64,000 nucleotides of DNA from an uncultured Nitrososphaeraceae archaeon (GCA_963779615.1 CAVZZA010000001.1:645743-709742), one strand, 5' to 3'; counted from the first letter of the stretch, positions 35,301 through 57,510 are shown. Program-made: numbers and translations. The notes: generated by a model not told the origin, from the sequence alone.

Positions 35301-35314
35301 TTAGGGTAGCCTAA
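35301..35314. promoter_or_regulatory. DtxR/IdeR-type operator at ftr1 promoter
   Basis: ttagggtagcctaa between a TATA-like tttattata (35288-35296) and the ATG at 35329. Confidence 0.85.
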
Positions 35315-35328
35315 CTATATAACATTTT

Positions 35329-37776
35329 ATGAAAATTCTAGATAGTATAAATAAAAGTCACATTAATTTGCGCACGTTTTCTTTCCTTGTAATCGTTTTT
35401 TCATTTTCGTTTTTTCTAACATCATCAAGCCATGTCATGGCTTTGGGGGGCCCATCCGAATCCGGACTGACCAAGGATGAATTGCAATCTACCTTTGTAA
35501 ATCTGGAGAGAATCAAAACCCAAATAAATTTGGTGAATAGCAGCATAAATGGCGGCGATGCCGATGGGTCCTTTTACCATTCCTATATTCCCCATTCCAC
35601 TACTTTTCCCGTCATAAAAAAAACAATAAGTAAAATAGACCCTGCTTCTGCCGCTAGTTTGGAATCATTACTTACTGATTTGCCCGTAACAATCAAATCC
35701 CAAATCTCAAATAACAGTTCTCTTCCGTCTTCAAATATAAAACCTGACTTGAACCAAATTCAAAACCTGATAGGGAATTTTAACGCTTTGGTAATTTCTC
35801 AAACAAATTCATCAGAGCAAAATCTGCTGTATCTTCAGGCATCCCTGGTATTGTTAAAGGATGCCTTGCAGTCTTACAATATTTCAAATGTGGCAAACAA
35901 TGCTAATGCTATGGCTGAAAACAAGTTCAGTAAGGTGGATTATGAAAACACGCTGGGTCTCCTTAATGCGTCCAAAAACTTGTTTAACAAATCGGCCATT
36001 ACAGAAAAAAACACCGTATCTGAAACAATGGGCCTCTTTGCTCAACTGGAGGATGCAGTTAAAAGCAAACAAAGCCCACAAAACCTGTCTAAAATATATT
36101 ACTCAATAGAAAGGGCTTACTCTAAAGGACTGTCGCCATACAGCAATGGCGAAGGAAACCCTGGCACAACCGCTCAATACCTTGCAAACATTCGCGAATT
36201 GCTGTCCAAGGTTGTTGATTCAGTAGATGATGGCGATTACACACAGGCAGGTAAATTTGCAACAACTGCCTATTTGGACAATTACGAATACCTTGAAGCT
36301 CCTATCGAAAAAATAAATGCCACATTGATGAGTGGCATTGAAGTGGATATGAGGGAAAACCTTCGCGGTATGATCAACGCCCACAGGCCCTCAGAGGAGA
36401 TCTCCTTGTTTATCGATAAATCTATACTGCAAAAGCTAGACGTGGTAGAGCCATTGCTAAAAAATGAGGCCGGCAACGGTGTTTTACCAAACACCGCAAA
36501 TGTCCCAAAAACCCTGGCAAATATCGACGCATTGCAGCAAGGCTTTGGTGTATACACTGGTGAAAGAAAGGAGATGGGGCAGGCAAATGATTCGCAGAAA
36601 CAGGAAGTCAGAAACAATATCGACCAGATACGATTGAAACTAAATGAAATGCTGGATTTATACAAAAAAGGAAATTCTGCCGAAGCCCTGTCAGTAGCAC
36701 GATCCGCTTATCTGGACAGTTATGAGAACATTGAAATCCCCCTAAGGCCAATCAATCCCGACTTTACTTTGGACATGGAGATAAAATTTGCAGAACTAAG
36801 GAATCAAATGCAGAGTCAAAAGCCATTTGCAGATGTTGAAAAAAAGGTCATTGAGATAAGAAAAGGGCTGGATGAATCTGAACGCCTGGTTTCAGGAACG
36901 GGGGTTGTTGCCCCGACTATTGCTTTTTCGTCTTCATTTTCCATAATATTCAGAGAAGGCCTAGAGTCGGCATTGATAATCGGCGCGATACTGACCTACC
37001 TTGAAGCTTCAAGAAATGAGCGTTTTAAAAAACATGTTTATTACGGAATCTTTATTGCAGTGGCAGGAACCGCTGTAACATGGGTTATCGCCGAACACCT
37101 AATCCAAATTTCAGGGGCTAACCGTGAACTGATCGAGGCAATAGCGGGGTTATCCGCGGTGGCTGTCCTTTTCTGGGTGAGTTTTTGGGTTCTTAATAAG
37201 ATTGAGACAAAAAGGTGGATTGAATTTGTTAAAGCAAAGGTGTGGCAGGCAACCGCGACTGGCAGCGTAATGGTTTTTGTCATGCTGTCATTCTTTACAG
37301 TGTACAGGGAGGGGTTTGAGACCGTTCTTTTCTACCAGGCAATGCTTTCTTATGCCAAGCATATGGAACTATATGTAGTTTTGGGATTAGTTGTGGGAAT
37401 CGCTGTAATAACCGTTGTTGCCCTTCTTATCATAAAGTTAGGAAAACGGTTGCCTTTGCGTGTTCTTTTCGGATTGACAATGGGTATAGGTGCTTACATG
37501 TCTGTCGCATTCCTTGGAAATGCTATCAGGGAGTTTCAGGAGGTAGGATATTTGCCAACTACCCCTGTTTTTGGGCTCGTGCCACGTTTGGATATAAATG
37601 TCGCCTCAATGACAGGCATTCACCCCACCCTTGAAAGCATAGTCGGCCAAATAATTCTTCTTTCCGTATATGCCATTGGATCCCTGTATGTGTTGGTAAT
37701 CCAACCCAGAAAGAAGAAGAAGATTGAGTTAGCTAGAAAGTCTATTGGGGATATGCCCGATCCCAATAGAAGATAG
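35329..37776 (+). CDS. ftr1: FTR1-family iron permease with large extracellular N-terminal region
   Basis: Two RExxE motifs (FREGLES, YREGFET) in the C-terminal TM domain; repeated AYLDxYE helical domains. Confidence 0.93.
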   Translation: MKILDSINKSHINLRTFSFLVIVFSFSFFLTSSSHVMALGGPSESGLTKDELQSTFVNLERIKTQINLVNSSINGGDADGSFYHSYIPHSTTFPVIKKTISKIDPASAASLESLLTDLPVTIKSQISNNSSLPSSNIKPDLNQIQNLIGNFNALVISQTNSSEQNLLYLQASLVLLKDALQSYNISNVANNANAMAENKFSKVDYENTLGLLNASKNLFNKSAITEKNTVSETMGLFAQLEDAVKSKQSPQNLSKIYYSIERAYSKGLSPYSNGEGNPGTTAQYLANIRELLSKVVDSVDDGDYTQAGKFATTAYLDNYEYLEAPIEKINATLMSGIEVDMRENLRGMINAHRPSEEISLFIDKSILQKLDVVEPLLKNEAGNGVLPNTANVPKTLANIDALQQGFGVYTGERKEMGQANDSQKQEVRNNIDQIRLKLNEMLDLYKKGNSAEALSVARSAYLDSYENIEIPLRPINPDFTLDMEIKFAELRNQMQSQKPFADVEKKVIEIRKGLDESERLVSGTGVVAPTIAFSSSFSIIFREGLESALIIGAILTYLEASRNERFKKHVYYGIFIAVAGTAVTWVIAEHLIQISGANRELIEAIAGLSAVAVLFWVSFWVLNKIETKRWIEFVKAKVWQATATGSVMVFVMLSFFTVYREGFETVLFYQAMLSYAKHMELYVVLGLVVGIAVITVVALLIIKLGKRLPLRVLFGLTMGIGAYMSVAFLGNAIREFQEVGYLPTTPVFGLVPRLDINVASMTGIHPTLESIVGQIILLSVYAIGSLYVLVIQPRKKKKIELARKSIGDMPDPNRR

Positions 37777-41048: not shown

Positions 41049-41234
41049 GTTATTCTCACAATTGAGATTGAAAATATAATTTATATAATATCCACATCAC
41101 ATAAAAAAAATGTCTACGTCAAAGGAACCTGATGTTACCAAAGATTCTGCATCAAGCAATGAGCAGAAGGAAGGGACCATCAAAAAGGATGCAGTCATGG
41201 ATGAAAAGCAACTAATCAAAGATAAAGAATCAAA
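41049..41234 (+). repeat. 186-bp inverted duplication, left arm
   Basis: Reverse complement of 42139-42324, one mismatch seen. Confidence 0.95.
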
Positions 41235-41734
41235 CTATTATGAATTAATTGATTGGCTACAGAAATGGGGTTATAAAGTGATAGATAGGACAAAAGAGAA
41301 CAAAATTACAGTTACAGATATTCAGTTTCAGGCAGAGGTACAACCAATATTGCCTTACTCCTCTGGACTAAATACGCCATTTTTTTTAGAATTTCAAAAT
41401 GATCTTGATGATGGTTTAATAATCAGAACTACCTTCGAGCTTGATAAAAACATAGAGATTCATCTTAAAAATCAAAATATGGTGAGAGAAATGGAATTAA
41501 ACGTACATAGAAATCGAACAACTTCTCTTGCCCATGAAAATCTCCATGATTAGATCTCATCCATTGATTAATCTGTATAAAGTGATATTTTACGATGATT
41601 TGAAAAAGCAGTTCTTTTATGACTGCATTATCGATTTGGTCAATTCAATGTCCCTTGCTATAGGCAAATGGGATGAAAAATACTATGAAGTAAAGCCGGA
41701 AAATGTATCAGATCAGCCTCAAGAGAAGAAATAA
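41110..41734 (+). CDS. Hypothetical protein split by a 1-nt frameshift near 41498
   Basis: Removing one A in gaattaaacg joins ORF 41110-41553 to 41528-41734 (…MELTYIEIEQLLLPMKIS…). Confidence 0.7.
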
Positions 41735-42071: not shown

Positions 42072-42138
42072 GTATCATCTTCAAGGATTTTATTTTGTGA
42101 GTCAATTACATTAGCATTGGGCTAAACCTAATGATAAT

Positions 42139-42324
42139 TTTGATTCTTTATCTTTGATTAGTTGCTTTTCATCCATGACTGCATCCTTTTTGATGGTCCC
42201 TTCCTTTTGCTCATTGCTTGATGCAGAATCTTTGGTAACATCAGGTTCCTTTGACGTAGACATTTTTTTTATGTGATGTGGATATTATATAAATTATATT
42301 TTCAATCTCAATTGTGAGAATAAC
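42139..42324 (-). repeat. 186-bp inverted duplication, right arm (promoter plus first ~41 codons of the 41110 gene)
   Basis: Near-identical reverse complement of 41049-41234. Confidence 0.95.
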
Positions 42325-42376: not shown

Positions 42377-43303
42377 GAGCCTATCCCAAAATTCGATAGA
42401 ATTACATCTTGTTGTGATCACCGCTAATGTGTGGCCTGCATCCAGAAGAAGGAGAAGGATAAAGGGGATGATTATACCATACTCAATATTCCAGATGAAC
42501 TGTCGGATGAAATTAGAATCATTTTGCCCAGAGGGAAACCGCCTAAAACAATAGGCCAACCAATCGTACCCTTCAGAAAAGTACTTGATGGTGTCCCATA
42601 CATCCTAAGAACTGGATGCCAGTGGAGGTTGAGGTTGCTGCCTGCAGAGCATGGTTCAGGTTCCACATGTCACAGGCGATTTCAGGTGTGGGTTGGGTTG
42701 TTGCAATCACATGATGACAAACAAGGTATCAAGTGGACATGGCAACTGCCTGACAGCACATCCATAAAGTCTCCTTTAGGGGGGCAATGACCGAAGGAAG
42801 CAATCCCGCTGACAGAGGCAAACTGGGAACAAAAAGGCACATTTTAACTGATGCAAAAGGAATCCCACTCTCAGTTGCCATGTCTTCCGCAAGCACTCAT
42901 GACACAAAACTAGCAACAGGCGTAATGGATAGTGTGGTTGTCAAACGATCATCATCATCATCATTAACAAAACATGACAAATCCAGAAAAAGAAAACCGT
43001 AACACCTATGCCTTGACAAAGCGTACAACTCCAAGCCGGCAAAACAAAAAATCATCAGCAGAGGCTATGTACCGCATTTACCGTGAAAGAGAAAAAGAGG
43101 GGGATGTCAATACAGAAACACAAAAAATTCCAAATCGAAAAAAACATCCTGCCAGAAGATGGGGGTGGTGGAGAGAGACAACTCATGGCACAACCGGTTC
43201 AGAAAGCTGTTCACAAGATGTGAGAGGAACGTAGAACTATGTTGGGTTGGTGCAGTTCTCATGCTGTATCATTATCTACAGAAAGATACTTTGGGGTGGG
43301 CTC
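42377..43303 (+). mobile_element. IS5-family insertion sequence with degenerate transposase
   Basis: YILRTGCQWR, GSTCHRRFQ, DRGKLGTKRHILTD..GIPL and CLDKAY fragments; imperfect TIRs gagcctatcccaaa / tttggggtgggctc flanked by TA. Confidence 0.9.
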
Positions 43304-43690
43304 TAAATATATAAATTTCATGTACTCCAAAATTCAACGATTAAACAGGAATTAGTTCTTATCTGAATTAACATTAATAAGAAATTGAGGTATAGTCAAT
43401 TGTTCAAAAAGAACAGTAAGGGACAAGAACTAAAAAAGTAATAAAGGTTTTTGTCATTACTAAGGATGTAGCCTCTATTACTTATTATTTGAGTAACCAA
43501 TTTACCCAAATGAGTCTGAATATCTTTATTGTTATTTACTACAGAAAGTATTTATTATTGATCTAGATTCTCATTTTTGATTCCATCGATAGAAATGTAT
43601 TTTTTCGAAAATAGTTCATTCTTTTAACGAATTTTCTATTTTATCGTGTTATTTTAACAATGGAGAATTATGGCTAGCTTTATATCATTG

Positions 43691-43704
43691 TTAGGCTTAC
43701 CTAA
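43691..43704. promoter_or_regulatory. DtxR-type operator downstream of TATA (ncRNA copy A)
   Basis: ctttatatcattg-ttaggcttacctaa. Confidence 0.85.
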
Positions 43705-43706
43705 CT

Positions 43707-43924
43707 ATGTCTATAAAATAACAAAATAGACACAAAAAAACAAGCGCGACATATACAAGCCAAGTTTGCCATTCTTACCGTGTCATAACCAGATTCATTG
43801 GTCATCTGGAAACTGACAAGCATGATAATAAAGGAGTGAACAAATATGGAGAAAATGGTATTTGCATTTTACTTCATTCACTCCTTTATTGTGTTATTTT
43901 ATATTTTACAGTAACAACTTTTTT
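43707..43924 (+). ncRNA. Putative iron-regulated structured small RNA, copy A
   Basis: Promoter plus operator; 5' hairpin tgtctat/atagaca; 14-bp stem 43827-43840/43877-43890; oligo-T end; homologous to 47232-47438 and 49725-49927. Confidence 0.6.
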
Positions 43925-43973
43925 ATACCATTTACCAAAGGGTCCTTATCACAACCTCATAATAGCTTAAATG

Positions 43974-44001
43974 TTAGGCTGGATTAACTAGGCATTTCTA
44001 A
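43974..44001. promoter_or_regulatory. Tandem degenerate DtxR-type operators after TATA (cttaaat)
   Basis: ttaggctggattaa-ctaggcatttctaa directly before ATG ACC ATT CAA AAT, a truncated paralogue of the 47517 ORF. Confidence 0.6.
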
Positions 44002-44504
44002 TGACCATTCAAAATCAATCCTCCTCCGGAATTGTGAAAAAGATGAAAAAGATGAAACAAAAGTAATGGATTTTATCTATGGATTTACACTCGTGATAAT
44101 ATCTTGTGTGACCAAAACTGTTATACGAATTATCCCAATCTTTTTAATTAGTCTAAATTGGTACGGGGTTACAATTTGTACCTCTGCTCTTGTTATCTTT
44201 CTTTTTGTGCTGTATTTGTAGATTGTCATGCGAGGATTACTGGCGATATTGTTTTATGTTTATTGGCAAAATTTGGAACTAGATAGGATATCGGATAAAA
44301 AAATGCTCAATATGATAAACTATACCGAAAATATAAAATGATTTTATTGATATCCAAAAACAAAAAATATTTAATGTAAAGGATCCTAATATATTATTGT
44401 AAACAATAACGTTATTATCTTACTATAAAATTTATAGAAATAATACATTTCTTTAACGTAGAACCGTATTGTGTGTTTATATATGTTCACAAAAAAGGAT
44501 TCAC

Positions 44505-45648
44505 GTGATTAAAAACCTCATATTTAGTGCCATAGTACTTTACGGTAATCGCATTTGGATACAATGCTTTTGCATACGCAACAGACTGGGATAAATCTGA
44601 TTTACCATTTAGGGGTAATCATGATCCGTGGCAATCAAATCATCAAAGTAAACTAATGTATAATTGGGACAAACTGCTTGAAAAGTATAAAGATATCATT
44701 CCATTAACTGGTAAACACCTTGCTAAATTATCTGGAAAGATCGGCGTATTGATATATACTCATGGAGATCCTTCTGATCCAATGCATGGACATGAACCAG
44801 TAAAAACTGAAAGCATAAAAAAAGCACTTGAAAAACTAGGATACCCTTCTGAAATAATAACACACATGCCCTATACATGGGATGAAGGATTACAAAAACT
44901 AGATGATCAGAATGTAAAATATGTAGTCTTTTTGTATACTGATTTATTTGGGCCAAAGTCTACTGTAATTCATAACGTAACTAGAGGGATCTTTGGAGGC
45001 ATTGAAGACTATAAATATTGTCCTGGTGTTCCTATGGGGCCTGATGTATGTATGTATATGGGAGAAGTAACAAAGCCAGCAAGCGAGACAAGTGATGCAA
45101 CTTTAGTTTTCTCAAGACCTGCGAGCCCAGATGACAAAACATTAAGAGAGATCTTTCTTAAGATAGCACAAAAATCAGATATGAATGAAAACGGGAAACC
45201 TAAAAAAGAAATTTTTGTATTGGTAGGTCATGGCGCGAGGTCAGACTTAAATGATCTCTATCAAACCAAAGAACTAACAAGTGCTGCTAAATATGTTCAA
45301 CATAAAATGAAATATGCTGATGCCTTTGGAGTTACTGCAAGAGAAGATTGGCCTGAACTAATGCCTGATGCTGTAAATAGCGCAGCTGATAAAATCGAGG
45401 AATCAATAAATATGCATAACGCCGACCATGCTGTTCTTGTTCCTGCAGCTGGAAGCGGTTCGGGCTTTGACGCTGTTAAACAAGAATTAGATAATAGGGG
45501 AATATCGTATGTTGAAACTGAGGGAACATTGCCAATAGGCGCCAAACAATTTACTCAATGGGCTCTAAAAAACATCATTGGATCCACAGTATTTATTCTG
45601 ATGGAGAAACCTTCCGAGAATACCATAACCTCTACTTGGGGGGTATGA
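44505..45648 (+). CDS. CbiX/sirohydrochlorin-chelatase-fold protein, probably secreted (signal peptide separated by a frameshift near 44540)
   Basis: Two class II chelatase His motifs (VLIYTHGD, VLVGHGARS); GTG at 44505 after TATA 44476 encodes MIKNLIFSAIVL then, shifted by 1 nt, TVIAFGYNAFAYA in frame with ORF 44656-45648. Confidence 0.7.
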
Positions 45649-45799
45649 CATATTTCTATATTTTTTTTGGCAAATCCATTATACCTCAACAACAAAAGAA
45701 ATTTATAGTGAAAATCTCATGAAAGCGAAAGAAACCTTATTGTCAGATTTTGACAATGTTTTTTTAATTAAATCTTTGTTGTCATTGGAAATTATGATT

Positions 45800-46454
45800 A
45801 TCCAAACATTTCTTATAGAAAAGTAATGGAGGGTATCACGCATATCCTTAGAACCGGATGTCAGTGGAAGGTGTAACCAAGAGAACGTAGATTAGATTCT
45901 GCATGCCATAGCCGATTCCAGGAATGGATTCGATCAAATATTTTCAAAAAGATGGGGATTAGGTCGTTTGAATTAAACTGGGAACAAAAAGGCATTTTCA
46001 CCGGATAAAGAAGGTATCTCACTTTCAGTTGCCATACCGTCTACCAGCACTCATGATGGTAGATTTAGTAACAGATGTAATGGATAATGTGGTTGTCAAA
46101 CGATCATCATCATCATTAACAAAACATGACAAATCCAGAAAAAGAAAACCGTAACACCTATGCCTTGACAAAGCGTACAACTCCAAGCCGGCAAAACAAA
46201 AAATCATCAGCAGAGGCTATGTACCGCATTTACCGTGAAAGAGAAAAAGAGGGGGATGTCAATACAGAAACACAAAAAATTCCAAATCGAAAAAACGTCC
46301 TGCCAGAAGATGGCGGTGGTGGAGAGAGACAACTCATGGCACAACCGGTTCAGAAAGCTGTTCACAAGATGTGAGAGGAACGTAGAACTATGTTGGGTTG
46401 GTGCAGTTCTCATGCTGTATCATTATCTACAGAAAGATACTTTGGGGTGGGCTC
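45800..46454 (+). mobile_element. Second IS5-family element, degenerate and mosaic
   Basis: ILRTGCQWK and CHSRFQEW fragments; ~46077-46454 nearly identical to 42922-43303 including the right TIR. Confidence 0.85.
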
Positions 46455-46559
46455 TAAATATGTTTAAATAAATCAAAATTATTTATCAGCTCTGTTCACT
46501 TAAGGATAAAACTAAATCTTGAAAATTCCTGTTTCCATTGTGATTAGTAGAAACAGGAT

Positions 46560-47090
46560 TCCTCAGCGTATATTGGTTGTGGACTGTATTTTTATTTTTC
46601 TGGCCTGTCATCAGGAAGAACCTCTCAAACACTGTCCTCATGTTTTGTCAAATCAAATCATGTTCTCCATTTGGAACTGGATACAATAGTACACACCAAA
46701 GAGGCTTTCCTCAAGGAAAAAGAAGGTGGAGGAGTTTCTCGTTGACGAGACATTATTTGAAATTGGTTCAGAAATGTTATGGCTTTGATGGGTGGCAATT
46801 GAGATGCCTGCCAACAAGAAAATTCTTTCAATAATCATATACGAGGAAAGAAACATGTTTGTGGTGGCCGAACCCTTTCTATCCGGCATGTTAGAAGACA
46901 TGGCTAACACCCTTTCTCGACTGATGGTGGAATATGGTATCCACAAGCATGCAGGTTCCTGATTGTAAAATATCATGTCCATTCCCCTTGTGAGAAAAGC
47001 ATGATTGAACGTACAATGCAATACATCAAGGACAGAACTTAATGCTTTAATGCTGATTATTTTCCGTGTAAAAAGAAGAAATGCTAATTT
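46560..47090 (+). mobile_element. IS6-family transposase remnant
   Basis: Broken frames WNWIQ, FLVDETL, WVAIE, ERNMFVVAE, STDGGIWYPQACRFL, IERTMQYIKDRT. Confidence 0.85.
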
Positions 47091-47215
47091 TTCATAAAAT
47101 TTTTCATTAAATTTTACTTGTATTTTAATTTAGGTGATGTGAATATGAGAACAATGAATTGAAGGATTGTTCTTTATTATAACAATGGAGAATCATGGCT
47201 ATCTTTATATCATTG

Positions 47216-47229
47216 TTAGGCTTACCTAA
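47216..47229. promoter_or_regulatory. DtxR-type operator downstream of TATA (ncRNA copy B)
   Basis: ctttatatcattg-ttaggcttacctaa. Confidence 0.85.
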
Positions 47230-47231
47230 TC

Positions 47232-47438
47232 ATGTCTATCAAGTAACCAAATAGACACAAAAAAATAGGCTCGACCTATACAAGCCAAATCCTGGGGTAT
47301 GTCATATCCGCTGGAACATATTGGTCTTAGAAACTAGTAAGCATGATAATAAAGGAGCGAATCACTATCTAAGGTAGTGTTGATTTTTTCAACATTCGCT
47401 CCTTTATATTATTTTATATTTTACAGAGCAACTTTTTT
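47232..47438 (+). ncRNA. Putative iron-regulated structured small RNA, copy B
   Basis: Same architecture as copy A; 14-bp stem 47349-47362/47394-47407 with a compensatory U-A to C-G change. Confidence 0.6.
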
Positions 47439-47489
47439 ATTTATCCAATTGTCTGACCATTTTATTATGATTGCATAATAACTTAAATA

Positions 47490-47517
47490 TTAGGCTGGAT
47501 TAATTAGGCATTACTAA
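47490..47517. promoter_or_regulatory. Tandem degenerate DtxR-type operators
   Basis: cttaaata-ttaggctggattaa-ttaggcattactaa-tg, overlapping the start codon at 47517. Confidence 0.65.
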
Positions 47518-47702
47518 TGACCATTCAAAATCAATCCTCCTCACTAATTTATGAGAAAGATGAAGCAGATGAGATTCAGTTTACAACATATATTTGCGAG
47601 AACACCGACGGTATTTTAGACCCCCTTGACCAAATGACTTTTGCATTGAATGAGACTGCATTAAGGTATGGTCCTATCACAGTATTAAAAGACGCCCCAT
47701 AA
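47517..47702 (+). CDS. Small acidic hypothetical protein (leaderless, putatively DtxR-repressed)
   Basis: ATG ~30 nt after TATA; 5' end duplicated at 44001. Confidence 0.6.
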   Translation: MTIQNQSSSLIYEKDEADEIQFTTYICENTDGILDPLDQMTFALNETALRYGPITVLKDAP

Positions 47703-47725
47703 CTTTAGGCAAAAGTAGTTACAAA

Positions 47726-48007
47726 ATGAAATCACCATCTACTGCTTCTTCTAATTCTCACGCTTCATCAGGAAAGCACTCGCTTCAAGAAGATAAAGCA
47801 GATGAAATTAAGGCACTTATAGCGCGATATGTATTGCTAAAAATAGAGCAAAAGAAGATAGAGTCAAAATTGTCTGAAATTGCCAAATATTACAATGACG
47901 AATCGCTTAGAACGATATTCGAGCCCATAGGCGAATCCATGATGGGAGTTATAGGTTTGGAACTTCCACACACCAGAAAAAAGGATTATGATGGTGTGAG
48001 CAGTTAG
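47726..48007 (+). CDS. Small helical/coiled-coil hypothetical protein
   Basis: 23 nt after the 47517 ORF on the same strand; EDKADEI resembles EKDEADEI of the upstream ORF. Confidence 0.6.
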   Translation: MKSPSTASSNSHASSGKHSLQEDKADEIKALIARYVLLKIEQKKIESKLSEIAKYYNDESLRTIFEPIGESMMGVIGLELPHTRKKDYDGVSS

Positions 48008-48108
48008 TAAAGTAGTTGGTGCTTAATCTACGAACTAAAATTATCCGTGATAAAAACAATCATTATTATTGTTATTTGCCAGATAAATCTCATCGTGTTT
48101 TATAGGCA

Positions 48109-48417
48109 TTATATTTTTTTAGGGGATGAGGGTTTCTGTTTTGATGACTTGTAAACACTCAATCTTTTTTTGTTGCCCTTTCTTTTGCTCTTTCGTAGAG
48201 GGTTTTTTCCGGCAGTAGGCATTATCTTTCCTTTAATCAATTTTGTGCTACAGATAGTGCAATTTCCTTCAATTACGGCCATTCTGGTTGCCAGCTTAAC
48301 AAATTTGATATTTGACAGTTTAACATTTGTTTTACATAGTGTACAATAGGTAGAATATCTGGAAATATTACCGCCTTCTGCTTCAGCTACTGCTACTGCT
48401 TCAGATTCTGATGCCAA
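48109..48417 (-). CDS. Zinc-ribbon protein (DUF5679-like) with Lys/Arg-rich tail
   Basis: YCTLCK...GNCTICSTKL followed by a basic tail; TATA-like element upstream. Confidence 0.75.
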   Translation of the reverse strand: MASESEAVAVAEAEGGNISRYSTYCTLCKTNVKLSNIKFVKLATRMAVIEGNCTICSTKLIKGKIMPTAGKNPLRKSKRKGNKKRLSVYKSSKQKPSSPKKI

Positions 48418-48522
48418 CTAGTATACTAGGTTCTTTAATACTATAAATGTATATTTAAAAATAATAATAAAAAAATAATAATTTGCTATCTGTAAATAAA
48501 AAAATATGTTAAAAGAAAGGTT

Positions 48523-49008
48523 TTATTGGATTTCTAGCCTTGCTAGGATATCCTCAATGTTTTGTTCGTCCTCAAGTTCTGCATCCAACAGTTCTAATGC
48601 AAGCCTGTAGGTTCCGTGATCCTTGTCTTTGACATTGTTTGCCAAATCATTATAGTGCTTAATTACGACTCTTTCAAATTCCAAGGCTTTCTCCAGTGCG
48701 GTTCTTAGGGACAAGTATCTTGATGGCTGAAGCTTTCCAAGTCCGCTCTCCTGCTCCCATTGTGCCGGGTCATCAGTTGGCTGCACTTCAAGCTGCATTA
48801 GCCTAAAAGCAACTTTTTTTGAATGGCCCAACTCCTCTTTTGCCCTGTCCTCAAAGAAGCCCTGCTCTAATACCCCTAACCCTTCAATGTTTTGTGAAAC
48901 ATACCAAAAATAATGGAACGCTGATAACTCCGCGCTATAAGCCGTCTTTAACATTTCTACTGTTCCCTCAACACCGGGTCCAGCTATCTCTTTTGACATT
49001 TTTCCCAT
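48523..49008 (-). CDS. Ferritin-like di-iron protein (bacterioferritin/DpsL-like)
   Basis: AE..A...Y, EELGH, ALEFE...I..Y, KDHGT and E.EDE four-helix ferroxidase pattern. Confidence 0.88.
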   Translation of the reverse strand: MGKMSKEIAGPGVEGTVEMLKTAYSAELSAFHYFWYVSQNIEGLGVLEQGFFEDRAKEELGHSKKVAFRLMQLEVQPTDDPAQWEQESGLGKLQPSRYLSLRTALEKALEFERVVIKHYNDLANNVKDKDHGTYRLALELLDAELEDEQNIEDILARLEIQ

Positions 49009-49059
49009 AAGTATCTATACGAGAATCGATTATATAAATATTTGAATAAAATTGTGATT

Positions 49060-49132
49060 AATTAATAAAATATTAGTACAAATTAATAAAATATTAGTAC
49101 AAATTAATAAAATGTTGGTACAAATTAATAAA
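49060..49132. repeat. 21-bp tandem repeat x3.5 upstream of the ferritin-like gene promoter
   Basis: aattaataaaatattagtaca x2, aattaataaaatgttggtaca, then partial aattaataaa. Confidence 0.92.
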
Positions 49133-49724
49133 CTTTTTTTTGGGTTTGATGATTTGCAACAATTCGTTATTATTAATGAAAATTGTATTGTGAATTGAAT
49201 TTAGTGATTATCGTGTTATTTCGTCTATCTATCAAAAGAATTTTTCCAGTTTTAGAATAGGGCAAAAAAATTAATGGCAAGGAAATCCTGCTCCATGTCA
49301 AATCAGGAATAATTTCATGCAGATGTATTGTATTATACATATCACTATCTTGAACAAGACTAAAAATATGATTTGGTCATAACCTGCAACAAAAAGACCA
49401 AAAACTACAATGGATGCAAAAAACCAATATCTATTTTTGGATTGTCACATTTTCTAACAATGGTTTTATTGTAAGTTGACATTAATTCAATGTTTTTAAT
49501 TATGTATGACCTGCTGGGTGGTTATCCAATCAATGTTCTAAAGTGTATGGATTGAAAAAATATGTGAACGACTTTGAAAACTTGTATCTTAATTAGTTAT
49601 CATAAATATTCGTTAGTTGCACAATAATAATATCTTTTTAAAGCTGCTTTTAATTATAAAACGAAAATGGTGGGTTATTGTTTATGTGTGAATATAGTTA
49701 AAACAATAAAAATACCTCTGGTTT

Positions 49725-49927
49725 AAAAACGATAGGCATTAATGTAAAGAGACAATAAAGGAGTGAGGATAAAAATTCCAGTTTCATCCCAATAGTTTAT
49801 TTACTCCTTTATTATAGTGAATTTGAGTCCCAGTTTGCTGATGTTCCAGTGGATATGACATACCCAGGATTTGGCTTGTATAGGTCGAGCCTATTTTTTT
49901 GTGTCTATTTGGTTACTTGATAGACAT
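49725..49927 (-). ncRNA. Putative iron-regulated structured small RNA, copy C
   Basis: Reverse complement nearly identical to copy B for the first ~85 nt; 11-bp stem 49754-49764/49803-49813 around a different loop. Confidence 0.6.
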
Positions 49928-49929
49928 GG

Positions 49930-49943
49930 TTAGGTAAGCCTAA
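49930..49943. promoter_or_regulatory. DtxR-type operator (ncRNA copy C)
   Basis: ttaggtaagcctaa with minus-strand TATA (atataaag) just upstream. Confidence 0.85.
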
Positions 49944-50421
49944 CAATGATATAAAGCTAGCCATGATTCTCCATTGTTAAAATAACGCTATAAAATAGGA
50001 AACCATATGGATAAAAATATTCTCCCAAAAATGTTTTGCTTGACTATTTCTCACTTGGATTGGTTGATTTTGTGAGTGTTGATAGCAACAATCGTATTAA
50101 ATTAATCTTGAGTCAACACAGAATCATTGTAAATTTTATTTAGAAGCCTAATTCAGGTACCAAAGCAAAAGAAATTACAATCTGGGAGAGCCTAAATTGC
50201 TGTTCTGCATTACTTTATGTTAACACACAAATTTTGAGAGCAAATTCGGATAGTTATTCTTTTGTCAATATAAATATATATCAAAAGTACTGCATATTTA
50301 TTTTTCTTATGCAGTACTTGGCAAAGCGAATATCATAAAGATAAACCTGATATCGAAATTCTCTATATAAAAATTTTGTTAAAAAACATTTAATACCATC
50401 GTCGGTTAACCTAGTAACAAT

Positions 50422-56551: not shown

Positions 56552-57019
56552 TTATTTTTCAATACAACAAACCCCAGCAGGAATATGGTATCCGTGTGGA
56601 CATACTTTGGGGTGTTTTAGTAAAGTACACAATGCCTCGGTAAATATCTCTTTCATGTGATGTTCAATACCACATACCATTTCTTCATCAATGTCTATTT
56701 TTAAAGCATCTTTCATCAAAACTTCCAACAATCGAGTATTGCGTATCATTTGTTTACCTATTTTTTCCCCCTCGCCTGTAAGAACAACTATGGAGCCTTT
56801 CTTGTAGTCAATTAAACGAGAATCATTTAGTTTGTGAAGCATTTGAACAACCGAAGGTTGAGTTACATTCAATATTTTCGCTATTGAGCTAACTTTCAAC
56901 TCCTGGCCATTTTCTAAAATCGACCACATTGCCTTCAAATACATTTCAATGTGTTCTGCCTCTGCGGTACCCACATACAATTGTTCTGGTAATTCGGAGT
57001 GGTTTGGAGAAATAGTCAC
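56552..57019 (-). CDS. dtxR: DtxR/MntR-family metal-dependent transcriptional regulator
   Basis: EMYLKA, IA..LNV.QPSV..ML..L, LT.EG, RLLE, CGIEH, P.VCPHG..IP. Confidence 0.93.
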   Translation of the reverse strand: MTISPNHSELPEQLYVGTAEAEHIEMYLKAMWSILENGQELKVSSIAKILNVTQPSVVQMLHKLNDSRLIDYKKGSIVVLTGEGEKIGKQMIRNTRLLEVLMKDALKIDIDEEMVCGIEHHMKEIFTEALCTLLKHPKVCPHGYHIPAGVCCIEK

Positions 57020-57074: not shown

Positions 57075-57479
57075 TCAATAATGTGTTGTTTCCATTTGTT
57101 TTGATGGTTTTTGCATGTCTTTGACATCTTTGACATGAGGATTTTTCTCATTTTTTTTTAATTGCCAAATAACCCCTTGATTGTTTAACATCAATTCAAT
57201 GGATTGGATTTTGCTTTTATAGAAAACGACTTTTTTTCCTTTTTCATTAATTACAATTTTGTCAATAGATAGTATGCCCGAATCTTTTAGTCTTCTAATT
57301 TTTTTGTAGGTTGAACTTATTGCAATGTCATTCTCGTTACATATCTGAAAAACTGTTTTTGGTTCATCGATTGTCGACAAAAGTATTTTGTATGAAAATC
57401 CATTAAATAACTCCTTTAAAAGAGGCATGAATTCCTGTTCTTTGTTTTTAATTTCATATTGCTGGGTATGGCGCATCAT
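57075..57479 (-). CDS. Winged-helix (ArsR-like) transcriptional regulator
   Basis: KILLST..PKT..QI....I.ISSTYKKIRRL...G.L and GKK..FYKS. Confidence 0.85.
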   Translation of the reverse strand: MMRHTQQYEIKNKEQEFMPLLKELFNGFSYKILLSTIDEPKTVFQICNENDIAISSTYKKIRRLKDSGILSIDKIVINEKGKKVVFYKSKIQSIELMLNNQGVIWQLKKNEKNPHVKDVKDMQKPSKQMETTHY

Positions 57480-57510
57480 TTAGGTGCGCCTAATTGTTAG
57501 GGACACCTAA
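57480..57510. promoter_or_regulatory. Two DtxR-type operators at the wHTH-dtxR operon promoter
   Basis: ttaggtgcgcctaa (57480-57493) and ttagggacacctaa (57497-57510) between the minus-strand TATA (tttaaata) and the start codon. Confidence 0.88.

Follow-up and report, generated by a model that had tools for sequence, protein, structure and literature searches.

Fur-repressed small RNAs (sRNAs), such as RyhB, PrrF1/2, FsrA, and IsrR, are bacterial regulators whose operator overlaps the sRNA promoter and through which non-essential iron proteins are down-regulated. PrrF occurs in paralogous copies, and Hfq or other chaperones are involved. Here, a comparable arrangement is described in a stretch of 64,000 nucleotides (the window) from an uncultured Nitrososphaeraceae archaeon (GCA_963779615.1 CAVZZA010000001.1:645743-709742). 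Three dispersed homologous units of this window, A, B, and C, may be sRNA genes controlled by a repressor of the DtxR family. The logic of an operator placed on the promoter is like that of the Fur-type sRNAs, but the regulator family differs, and no homology was found with Rfam. One report (PMC6016810) describes RyhB and PrrF as iron-sparing, and an abstract does so for the sRNA IsrR.

The closest analogue is MrsI (ncRv11846) of mycobacteria, which combines a DtxR-type operator on an sRNA promoter with a conserved loop motif, as is proposed here. This small independent RNA has an IdeR site near its start, is induced by iron starvation, and acts with a 6-nt seed in a hairpin loop on bfrA, a ferritin gene, and on other mRNAs (PMC6016810). 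MrsI is bacterial, single-copy, and about 100 nt long, with a rho-independent terminator and an operator of 19 bp. In contrast, the family described here has an archaeal TATA promoter, a putative operator of 14–16 bp, and 2–8 copies. No similarity in sequence or structure to MrsI was detected (Rfam, no match at E ≤ 1).

Archaeal repressors of the DtxR family include MDR1 of Archaeoglobus fulgidus, DtxR of T. kodakarensis, and Idr1, Idr2, and SirR of Halobacterium. Metal-dependent repression of this type extends to the regulator's own gene and to iron-uptake genes, and MDR1 is described as repressing its own transcription (PMC3074139). The MDR1 motif, GTT-N8,9-AAC, resembles, with a spacing that differs by 1–2 bp, the extended palindrome found here, GTTAGG-N4-CCTAAC, which can be written as GTT-N10-AAC. 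No small RNA was reported for these archaeal DtxR regulons in the literature searched, and the term "sRNA" occurs 0 times in PMC3074139. Searches of listings and abstracts returned nothing relevant on sRNAs of ammonia-oxidising archaea or on archaeal DtxR-linked sRNAs, and no metal-responsive sRNA was found reported for any archaeon in the literature searched. The sRNA41 of Methanosarcina mazei is an archaeal sRNA that is reportedly controlled by a nutrient-responsive repressor, responds to nitrogen, and has sequences that resemble an anti-Shine–Dalgarno (anti-SD) sequence and mask ribosome-binding sites. The conserved CCAAAUCCU motif and the 3' arm UCACUCCUUU of the present units likewise resemble the 3' end of 16S rRNA. 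Unlike in sRNA41, the proposed signal is metal and not nitrogen, the sequence is unrelated, and the arm that resembles an anti-SD sequence is taken up in a stable stem.

On balance, we lean towards the view that A, B, and C belong to a set of seven paralogous genes, each free-standing and encoding a structured non-coding RNA, which would be repressed by metal-loaded DtxR. We place them as a new RNA family of a known functional kind, which would be the first such in archaea.

Units A, B, and C and their family

A repeat search of the window paired 43632–43763 with 49871–50002 (132 nt, 91% complementary) and 47174–47296 with 49863–49985 (123 nt, 98% complementary). It also gave a direct repeat between A and B (43649–43763 and 47174–47288, 90% identity). 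Together with sequence reading and a three-way alignment, this search placed the three units where the initial annotation of the window had put them, and sequence reading and the alignment also recovered every motif quoted there. These motifs are an upstream AACAATGGAGAAT, the TATA box TTTATAT, the palindrome TTAGGCTTACCTAA, a 5' hairpin (GUCUAU/AUAGAC), and an A-run, followed in the 3' part by a long stem (AUAAAGGAG.../...CUCCUUUAU) and a T-rich end. The features of the three units are as follows.

43650–43706, plus strand: promoter of unit A, from sequence reading, with GAGAAT at 43663–43668, TATA box TTTATAT at 43679–43685, and palindrome TTAGGCTTACCTAA at 43691–43704
43707–43908, plus strand: predicted transcript of unit A, with 5' hairpin at 43709–43714/43726–43731, A-run, and variable middle
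43825–43840/43877–43892, plus strand: long stem of the unit A 3' end, with T-rich sequence after it; start and end of the transcript are predicted
47175–47231, plus strand: promoter of unit B, with TATA box at 47204–47210 and palindrome at 47216–47229
47232–47424, plus strand: predicted transcript of unit B, with 5' hairpin at 47234–47239/47251–47256, long stem at 47346–47362/47394–47407, and T-rich end
49928–49990, minus strand: promoter of unit C, with palindrome at 49930–49943 and TATA box at 49949–49955, in minus-strand reading
49738–49927, minus strand: predicted transcript of unit C, with 5' hairpin at 49920–49925/49903–49908 and long stem at about 49801–49816/49753–49767

Each unit has its own promoter, and the predicted RNAs are about 185–200 nt long. 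The promoter layout of unit A is conserved in 33 units that carry the promoter pattern and in 16 units of a diverged form, called type II below. The fold of unit A reaches −50 kcal/mol, and the minimum free energy z-scores of A, B, and C are −4.73, −4.70, and −2.46 (against 200 dinucleotide shuffles). Units end in a stem and a T-run, with an additional hairpin and T8 in three copies.

The family proved to be larger than the three copies first counted. Searches of the 3.17-Mb genome with unit B (blastn) and with an nhmmer profile gave 7 copies, the further four lying at C1:611k, C1:617k, C1:640k, and C4:91k in the blastn search. The nhmmer profile returned the same 7 full-length copies at E-values of 7e-39 to 5e-29, which places the repeat family far beyond chance. 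Six of the seven copies, FTR1, and dtxR all fall inside about 95 kb of contig C1. A lone remnant at G000:C1:627541-627619 (L032) resembles the long 3' stem only (nhmmer E 0.007; E 0.058 with the covariance model R1 described below).

The type I pattern, which combines TATA, palindrome, and start, was found at 31 places in 11 of 34 genomes of the genus, with 0 matches in a reversed control. An order-wide sample gave it in 6 of 401 genomes, all of them in the genus, and in none of the 378 genomes from outside. A covariance model, R1, was built from 28 type I units. It matches 7 of 119 genomes of the family with a completeness of at least 90%, all seven in the genus, with 2–8 matches per positive genome, and none of 98 genomes from 13 other genera.

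Type II was first met among the palindromes of a complete congener genome. It is single-copy and occurs, by blastn, in 16 of the 34 genus genomes, all of them without type I, at 74–84% identity. Type I, with 2–8 copies, marks one clade of the genus, and the diverged single-copy form marks the other clade. One or the other form is present in 27 of the 34 genomes and neither in 7, and none was found outside the genus. Both forms have in common the upstream GA(G/T)AAT, TATA, the palindrome, CCAAAUCC(Y)UUGC, CUGG, the loop motif AUUGGC, and 3' UCAC(U)CC. None of the 16 type II loci is matched by R1 at E ≤ 1, and the homology of the two forms therefore rests on these common blocks and on their complementary distribution. 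A pattern of the operator, 45–75 nt, and CCAAATCC gave 1 match in 204 genomes of the family outside the genus, versus 3 control matches; this single match is taken as chance, and the gap setting of the pattern missed most type II units.

A second, shorter sRNA-like unit of about 100 nt was noted outside the window (G000:C4:108010-108170). Homologues of it lie in L037 and, on the minus strand at about 2486 (reverse-complement coordinates), in L035. It has GAGAATCA and a TATA box upstream, as in the family, but one arm of its palindrome is degenerate (TTAGGCTAACCGAA / TTAGGATAACCAAA). A pair of hairpins and a U-run lie 3' of the palindrome, and the second hairpin shows compensatory differences between genomes.

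Palindrome, metal regulon, and candidate regulators

In all 7 copies and in congeners, the palindrome sits between TATA and the predicted start. The site spans 14 bp, or 16 with the flanking G/C, and is single at the units and tandem before a helix-turn-helix (HTH) gene that precedes dtxR. The genome holds 12 TTAGG-N4-CCTAA sites: 7 at the units, 1 in the promoter of FTR1, 2 in tandem before HTH-dtxR, and 2 inside conserved open reading frames (ORFs). The sites and genes of the window that belong here are the following.

35301–35314, plus strand: FTR1 site TTAGGGTAGCCTAA, with a TATA-like box before it and, after it, the ATG of an 815-aa iron permease (35329–37776)
57497–57510 and 57480–57493, minus strand: tandem palindromes, preceded by TATA TTTAAATA and followed by the leaderless ATG of the gene for the 134-aa HTH protein, which comes before dtxR
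57075–57479, minus strand: 134-aa HTH protein, the gene directly downstream of the tandem palindromes
56552–57019, minus strand: 155-aa DtxR-family protein (Pfam Fe_dep_repr_C, PF02742, 1.6e-19; Fe_dep_repress, PF01325, 7.3e-13)

The 815-aa permease belongs to the FTR1 family (Pfam FTR1, 3.6e-20), and sites at the equivalent position lie upstream of FTR1-like genes in G012, G024, and G044. In 22 of the 30 dtxR loci fetched, paired palindromes 17 bp apart precede HTH-dtxR, with invariant arms and varying centres. The palindromes of the units likewise have fixed arms, around the centres CTTA, CATA, ACTA, CCTA, TATA, AATA, CGAA, CCAA, and TTAG. Invariant arms with free centres are the footprint expected of a dimeric DNA-binding protein. 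In G003, G010, and G018, tandem sites lie about 200 nt upstream of a gene for a ZIP-like metal transporter, a label that comes from reading the translation. The DtxR/IdeR consensus, TTAGGTTAGCCTAACCTAA, is 19 bp long (PMC7762939, section 5). Its first 14 nt fit TTAGG-N4-CCTAA, in keeping with the earlier assignment of the palindrome as a DtxR operator, and one congener unit (L025) carries the exact consensus 14-mer. A putative operator of the metalloregulator type overlaps the predicted sRNA promoter, and the palindrome marks a small metal regulon that comprises the FTR1 permease, the HTH-dtxR operon, and, in relatives, the ZIP-like transporter.

An ortholog of the DtxR-family protein is present in 33 of the 34 genus genomes, at 86–92% identity. 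The protein of the window has the N-terminal HTH domain and the dimerisation/metal domain of the family, and at the primary metal site its residues M26, C116, E119, and H120 align to MntR positions 8, 99, 102, and 103 (phmmer alignment). In PMC4805248, Met10/Cys102/Glu105/His106 is assigned to C. diphtheriae DtxR as its iron-specific site, and Asp8/Glu99/Glu102/His103 to B. subtilis MntR as its manganese site. The protein of the window therefore has the iron-type Met/Cys/Glu/His set and not the Asp/Glu/Glu/His set of MntR.

Conserved helices of the predicted RNA

The alignment A2 comprises 28 type I transcripts out of the 33 promoter-pattern units. Left out were L042/G001 (a 230-nt variant), L036 (truncated where its contig stops), L045/G049 (with a differing 3' end), and L035(−) and L037(−), both of type III. 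The helices that RNAalifold predicted from A2 were precisely two, the 5' hairpin and the long 3' stem, with double changes in 7 of 17 pairs. Across 23 named pairs, 89.4% of the cells pair, versus 85.9% in shuffles, and double changes occur in 12 of the 23 pairs, versus 4.9 in shuffles. None of 500 shuffles reached any of five measures, and slid controls paired at 40–50%. The compensatory change from U-A to C-G between A and B, reported at the outset for the long stem, is real and corresponds to alignment columns 184/236. One hairpin pair is A-U in 17 of the sequences and G-U in 10, a variation that fits RNA pairing and not a DNA palindrome. A scan of A2 column pairs (at least 4 stacked pairs, at least 80% pairing) gave no further conserved helix in the middle of type I.

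The motif AUUGGCAU recurs inside the long stem in many members and in the diverged form. The picture given in the initial annotation, of variable loops on a constant scaffold, holds only in part, and the enclosed region is not unrelated in all copies. The predicted fold of type II places CCAAAUCCC in the loop of a 10-bp hairpin, with a 3' domain closed by a long interrupted helix. At gathering thresholds, Rfam 15 matched only a tRNA in the window, and it gave 0 matches at E ≤ 1 on five loci that carry units A, B, and C, a type II unit, and a unit from a congener. Together with the literature searches, this agrees with the earlier remark that no such family was known.

Proposed circuit and alternative readings

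The promoter consists of the unit-specific GA(G/T)AAT, TATA TTTATAT, and the 14-bp palindrome that fills the space from TATA to the start. A metal-loaded dimeric repressor on the palindrome would block this promoter by occlusion, and the repressor would most likely be the 155-aa DtxR-family protein (56552–57019) with its Fe(II)-type ligands. With the promoter blocked by a metal-loaded repressor, the RNAs would be made only under metal scarcity, probably of iron, and they would be released on starvation along with the FTR1 permease and the HTH-dtxR operon. The RNA would comprise the 5' hairpin, an A-rich linker, and a less conserved middle with CCAAAUCC(Y)U, which is predicted to sit in a hairpin loop in the diverged form. 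The 3' stem of 11–17 bp and the U-rich sequence would act as terminator and stabiliser. By analogy with bacterial iron-starvation sRNAs, the RNAs may regulate mRNAs in trans, with the conserved CCAAAUCC region as the pairing site. The proposal of an iron-starvation sRNA system had reached as far as such targets. Comparison upheld its free-standing, structured units with no conserved ORF and with the palindrome of a metal regulon, but the search for mRNA-pairing targets found nothing.

The growth of ammonia-oxidising archaea is affected by the supply of metals, of which they require iron and copper. To our knowledge, almost nothing is known about post-transcriptional regulation in these organisms. 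The locus offers a complete circuit that can be tested, with a regulator gene, a footprinted 14-bp operator, a regulon of metal transporters, and an RNA family with predicted ends. If the reading is true, iron-sparing riboregulation arose independently under a DtxR-type sensor in archaea, and the expansion from one to up to seven or eight copies is a natural experiment in the diversification of sRNA paralogs. The operator also offers a way to read the metal regulons of uncultured relatives.

Going further, the family may tentatively be seen as the first archaeal iron-starvation riboregulator, a DtxR-repressed sRNA that expanded in one clade of a genus of soil ammonia oxidisers from one gene to up to 7–8 paralogs with diversified middle and loop, each sending the starvation signal to different mRNAs. 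The promoter would then be shared by all paralogs, as would the 5' hairpin, the closing stem, and the CCAAAUCC motif. In a bolder variant, the SD/anti-SD-like closing stem could make the RNA a competitor of 16S rRNA or of ribosome-binding sites.

Sequence collections were also compared. Twenty-one sequencing runs were found, of which 20 hold 8–14% of the words, and contig sets from four soil or rhizosphere metatranscriptomes were compared (X5, X6, X10, and X14). Contigs of the four sets cover 47.5–49.0 kb, with small ORFs, a 102-aa ORF, and the ferritin-like gene. The soil metatranscriptome contigs include cover of 47524–47931, the small ORFs past unit B. The absence of cover over the units in environmental contigs neither supports nor excludes the predicted transcript. 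The only contig piece on a unit is a 141-nt insert at 47182–47323, in B, from a size-fractionated metatranscriptome (depth 3.7). An exact-complement scan of the CCAAAUCC region, with no RNAplex- or IntaRNA-type run, gave only the antisense strands of the units themselves and scattered coding sites.

Several observations weigh against free-standing, DtxR-repressed RNA genes. The 141-nt insert already begins within the promoter, about 50 nt ahead of the predicted start, and it may be DNA or read-through. No enrichment of complementarity was found in 9407 candidate initiation windows (for example, 21 versus 14.1 expected, and 12 versus 12.7). Most helix columns are nearly invariant, with both stem arms highly conserved, so that covariation events are few and fall among related sequences. 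In type II, which is too conserved to test, a double change occurs in only 1 of 36 pairs. The bare palindrome is not over-represented in relatives (2–8 sites versus 5–11 reversed-control matches), and without genome-wide enrichment its weight rests on position and footprint, not on counts. In 23 of the 28 units, an ATG stands 7–24 nt past the GGAG of the 5' arm, which resembles an SD sequence, and this leaves a small peptide as a candidate product. Finally, 8 of the 30 dtxR loci have no palindrome, and dtxR has its own promoter there. The HTH gene is absent from the same 8 loci; the tandem sites thus travel with it and not with dtxR, which makes the HTH protein a candidate binder.

This last point belongs to the alternative that survives best, which we nevertheless consider doubtful. 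The RNA reading would be right, but the palindrome would be bound by the 134-aa HTH protein, or DtxR would sense manganese, cobalt, or zinc, and the family would answer to another signal. At G049:C46 and G001:C309, the HTH gene stands away from dtxR, and its ortholog lies 1–2 kb from a unit. Genomes without an HTH ortholog (G003, G010, G018, and G045) have no unit, but this co-occurrence is confounded by phylogeny. As for the metal, the highest-scoring relatives of the DtxR protein in the structure database are the manganese sensors SloR, ScaR, and MntR, and two units adjoin cbtBA cobalt-transporter genes; against this, the palindrome fits the DtxR consensus and the ligands are of the iron-type Met/Cys kind. 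The tandem sites persist before the ZIP-like transporter of G003, G010, and G018, where DtxR is present and the HTH paralogs are only 33–35% identical, and DtxR is therefore favoured as the binder. Near their end, HTH-protein matches in several type I genomes cross 1–2 stop codons.

It is unlikely that the unit is instead an mRNA for a tiny hydrophobic peptide, in which the 5' arm UAAAGGAGUGA would be an SD site sequestered by the 3' arm UCACUCCUUUA, and a short ORF in the loop would be translated once the stem opens. The 3' end of 16S rRNA, read from the genome, is ...GGAUCACCUCCUUA, which the 3' arm UCACUCCUUUA resembles, and a GGAG stands 8–18 nt before the start in a minority of genes. Several of the loop peptides that begin at the ATG past the 5' arm are hydrophobic, with a common xLA(F/Y)TNSLL. 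However, these peptides range from 5 to 47 aa with differing frames and stops. A start codon is missing altogether from two units, three others offer GTG or TTG only, and both arms of the long stem co-vary as a helix. Type II has no ATG at a usable distance past AAAGGG. Since frames, ends, and ATG vary and type II has no comparable ORF, a peptide product is ranked as a minor rival. The variable frames and lengths, with 5 of 28 units lacking an ATG, likewise agree with the first observation, in which no conserved long ORF was found. Two candidates were tried and rejected. A mini-ORF, MSIK (ATG TCT ATH AAR TAA), stands at the predicted start in 6 of the 7 copies of the genome, but in congeners its ATG is replaced by AAG, GTG, CCG, TAG, ATA, GCG, ACG, or TTG. 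In type II, an ORF beginning M[AS]YL[QK]TNT... is frame-shifted in G017 and G014 (2 of 16), and a hand count of its differences gave 6 synonymous versus 12 non-synonymous.

Still less probable is that the units are cis-acting leaders or promoter modules of downstream genes and not independent RNAs. Units A and B each precede a conserved 76-nt block and a short ORF by about 50–100 nt, C lies 700 nt upstream of the ferritin-like gene on the same strand, and two other copies lie 250–300 nt upstream of near-identical cbtB-cbtA operons, also on the same strand. Nevertheless, the downstream genes vary by copy, and one copy converges on a dehydrogenase/cupredoxin gene. Both cbtB and the ferritin-like gene are preceded, at leaderless distance, by a TATA of their own, and the units end in a stem and T-run, with the extra hairpin and T8 of three copies. 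The type II unit of G012 stands alone, intergenic between unrelated genes. A check for a riboswitch or an ordinary 5' untranslated region thus found no constant downstream gene, the neighbours being different, convergent, or equipped with their own TATA.

A mobile or selfish repeat without RNA function, that is, a fragment like a miniature inverted-repeat transposable element or one associated with an insertion sequence, is very improbable: the units are multi-copy and clustered, transposase pseudogene fragments adjoin A and B, and B and C are 97–98% identical in the 5' half and unrelated in the 3' part, but conservation runs from the promoter to the T-run, the operator is common to metal genes, the helices show compensatory changes, the single-copy form is kept at 74–84% identity in 16 genomes, and no terminal inverted repeats or target duplications were found at the unit borders, where the inverted repeats are internal RNA stems.

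The neighbourhood of the units offers some further observations. The 76-nt block (43958–44033 and 47474–47549) carries a TATA-like box and a leaderless short ORF, which has 61 aa in B (47517–47702) and is truncated in A; a 93-aa ORF (47726–48007) comes next, and neither the 61-aa nor the 93-aa ORF matched a Pfam family. A 330-aa ORF adjoining unit A (44656–45648) has no Pfam family at E ≤ 0.01. The cbtBA operons encode CbtB (71 aa) and CbtA (243 aa, PF09490, E about 1e-47) at L046:5895-6891, minus strand, and L047:17172-18150, plus strand, which correspond to about 609.9–610.9 kb and 641.2–642.1 kb of G000:C1. Just upstream of A and B lie two copies of a broken transposase-like element (42431–43310 and 45802–46461), whose reading frames are split; the copies agree at 100% over 193 nt and at 95% over 188 nt. 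Three tandem 21-nt AT-rich repeats (49060–49129) stand just upstream of the promoter region of the ferritin-like gene. The tRNA matched by Rfam at 2265–2357 on the minus strand covers 93 nt versus 71 model positions, which suggests an intron. The 5' end of a 147-aa ORF (MSTSKEPDVTKD...) forms an inverted duplication (41097–41553 versus 42111–42276), its first 40 or so codons recurring about 1 kb away on the opposite strand.

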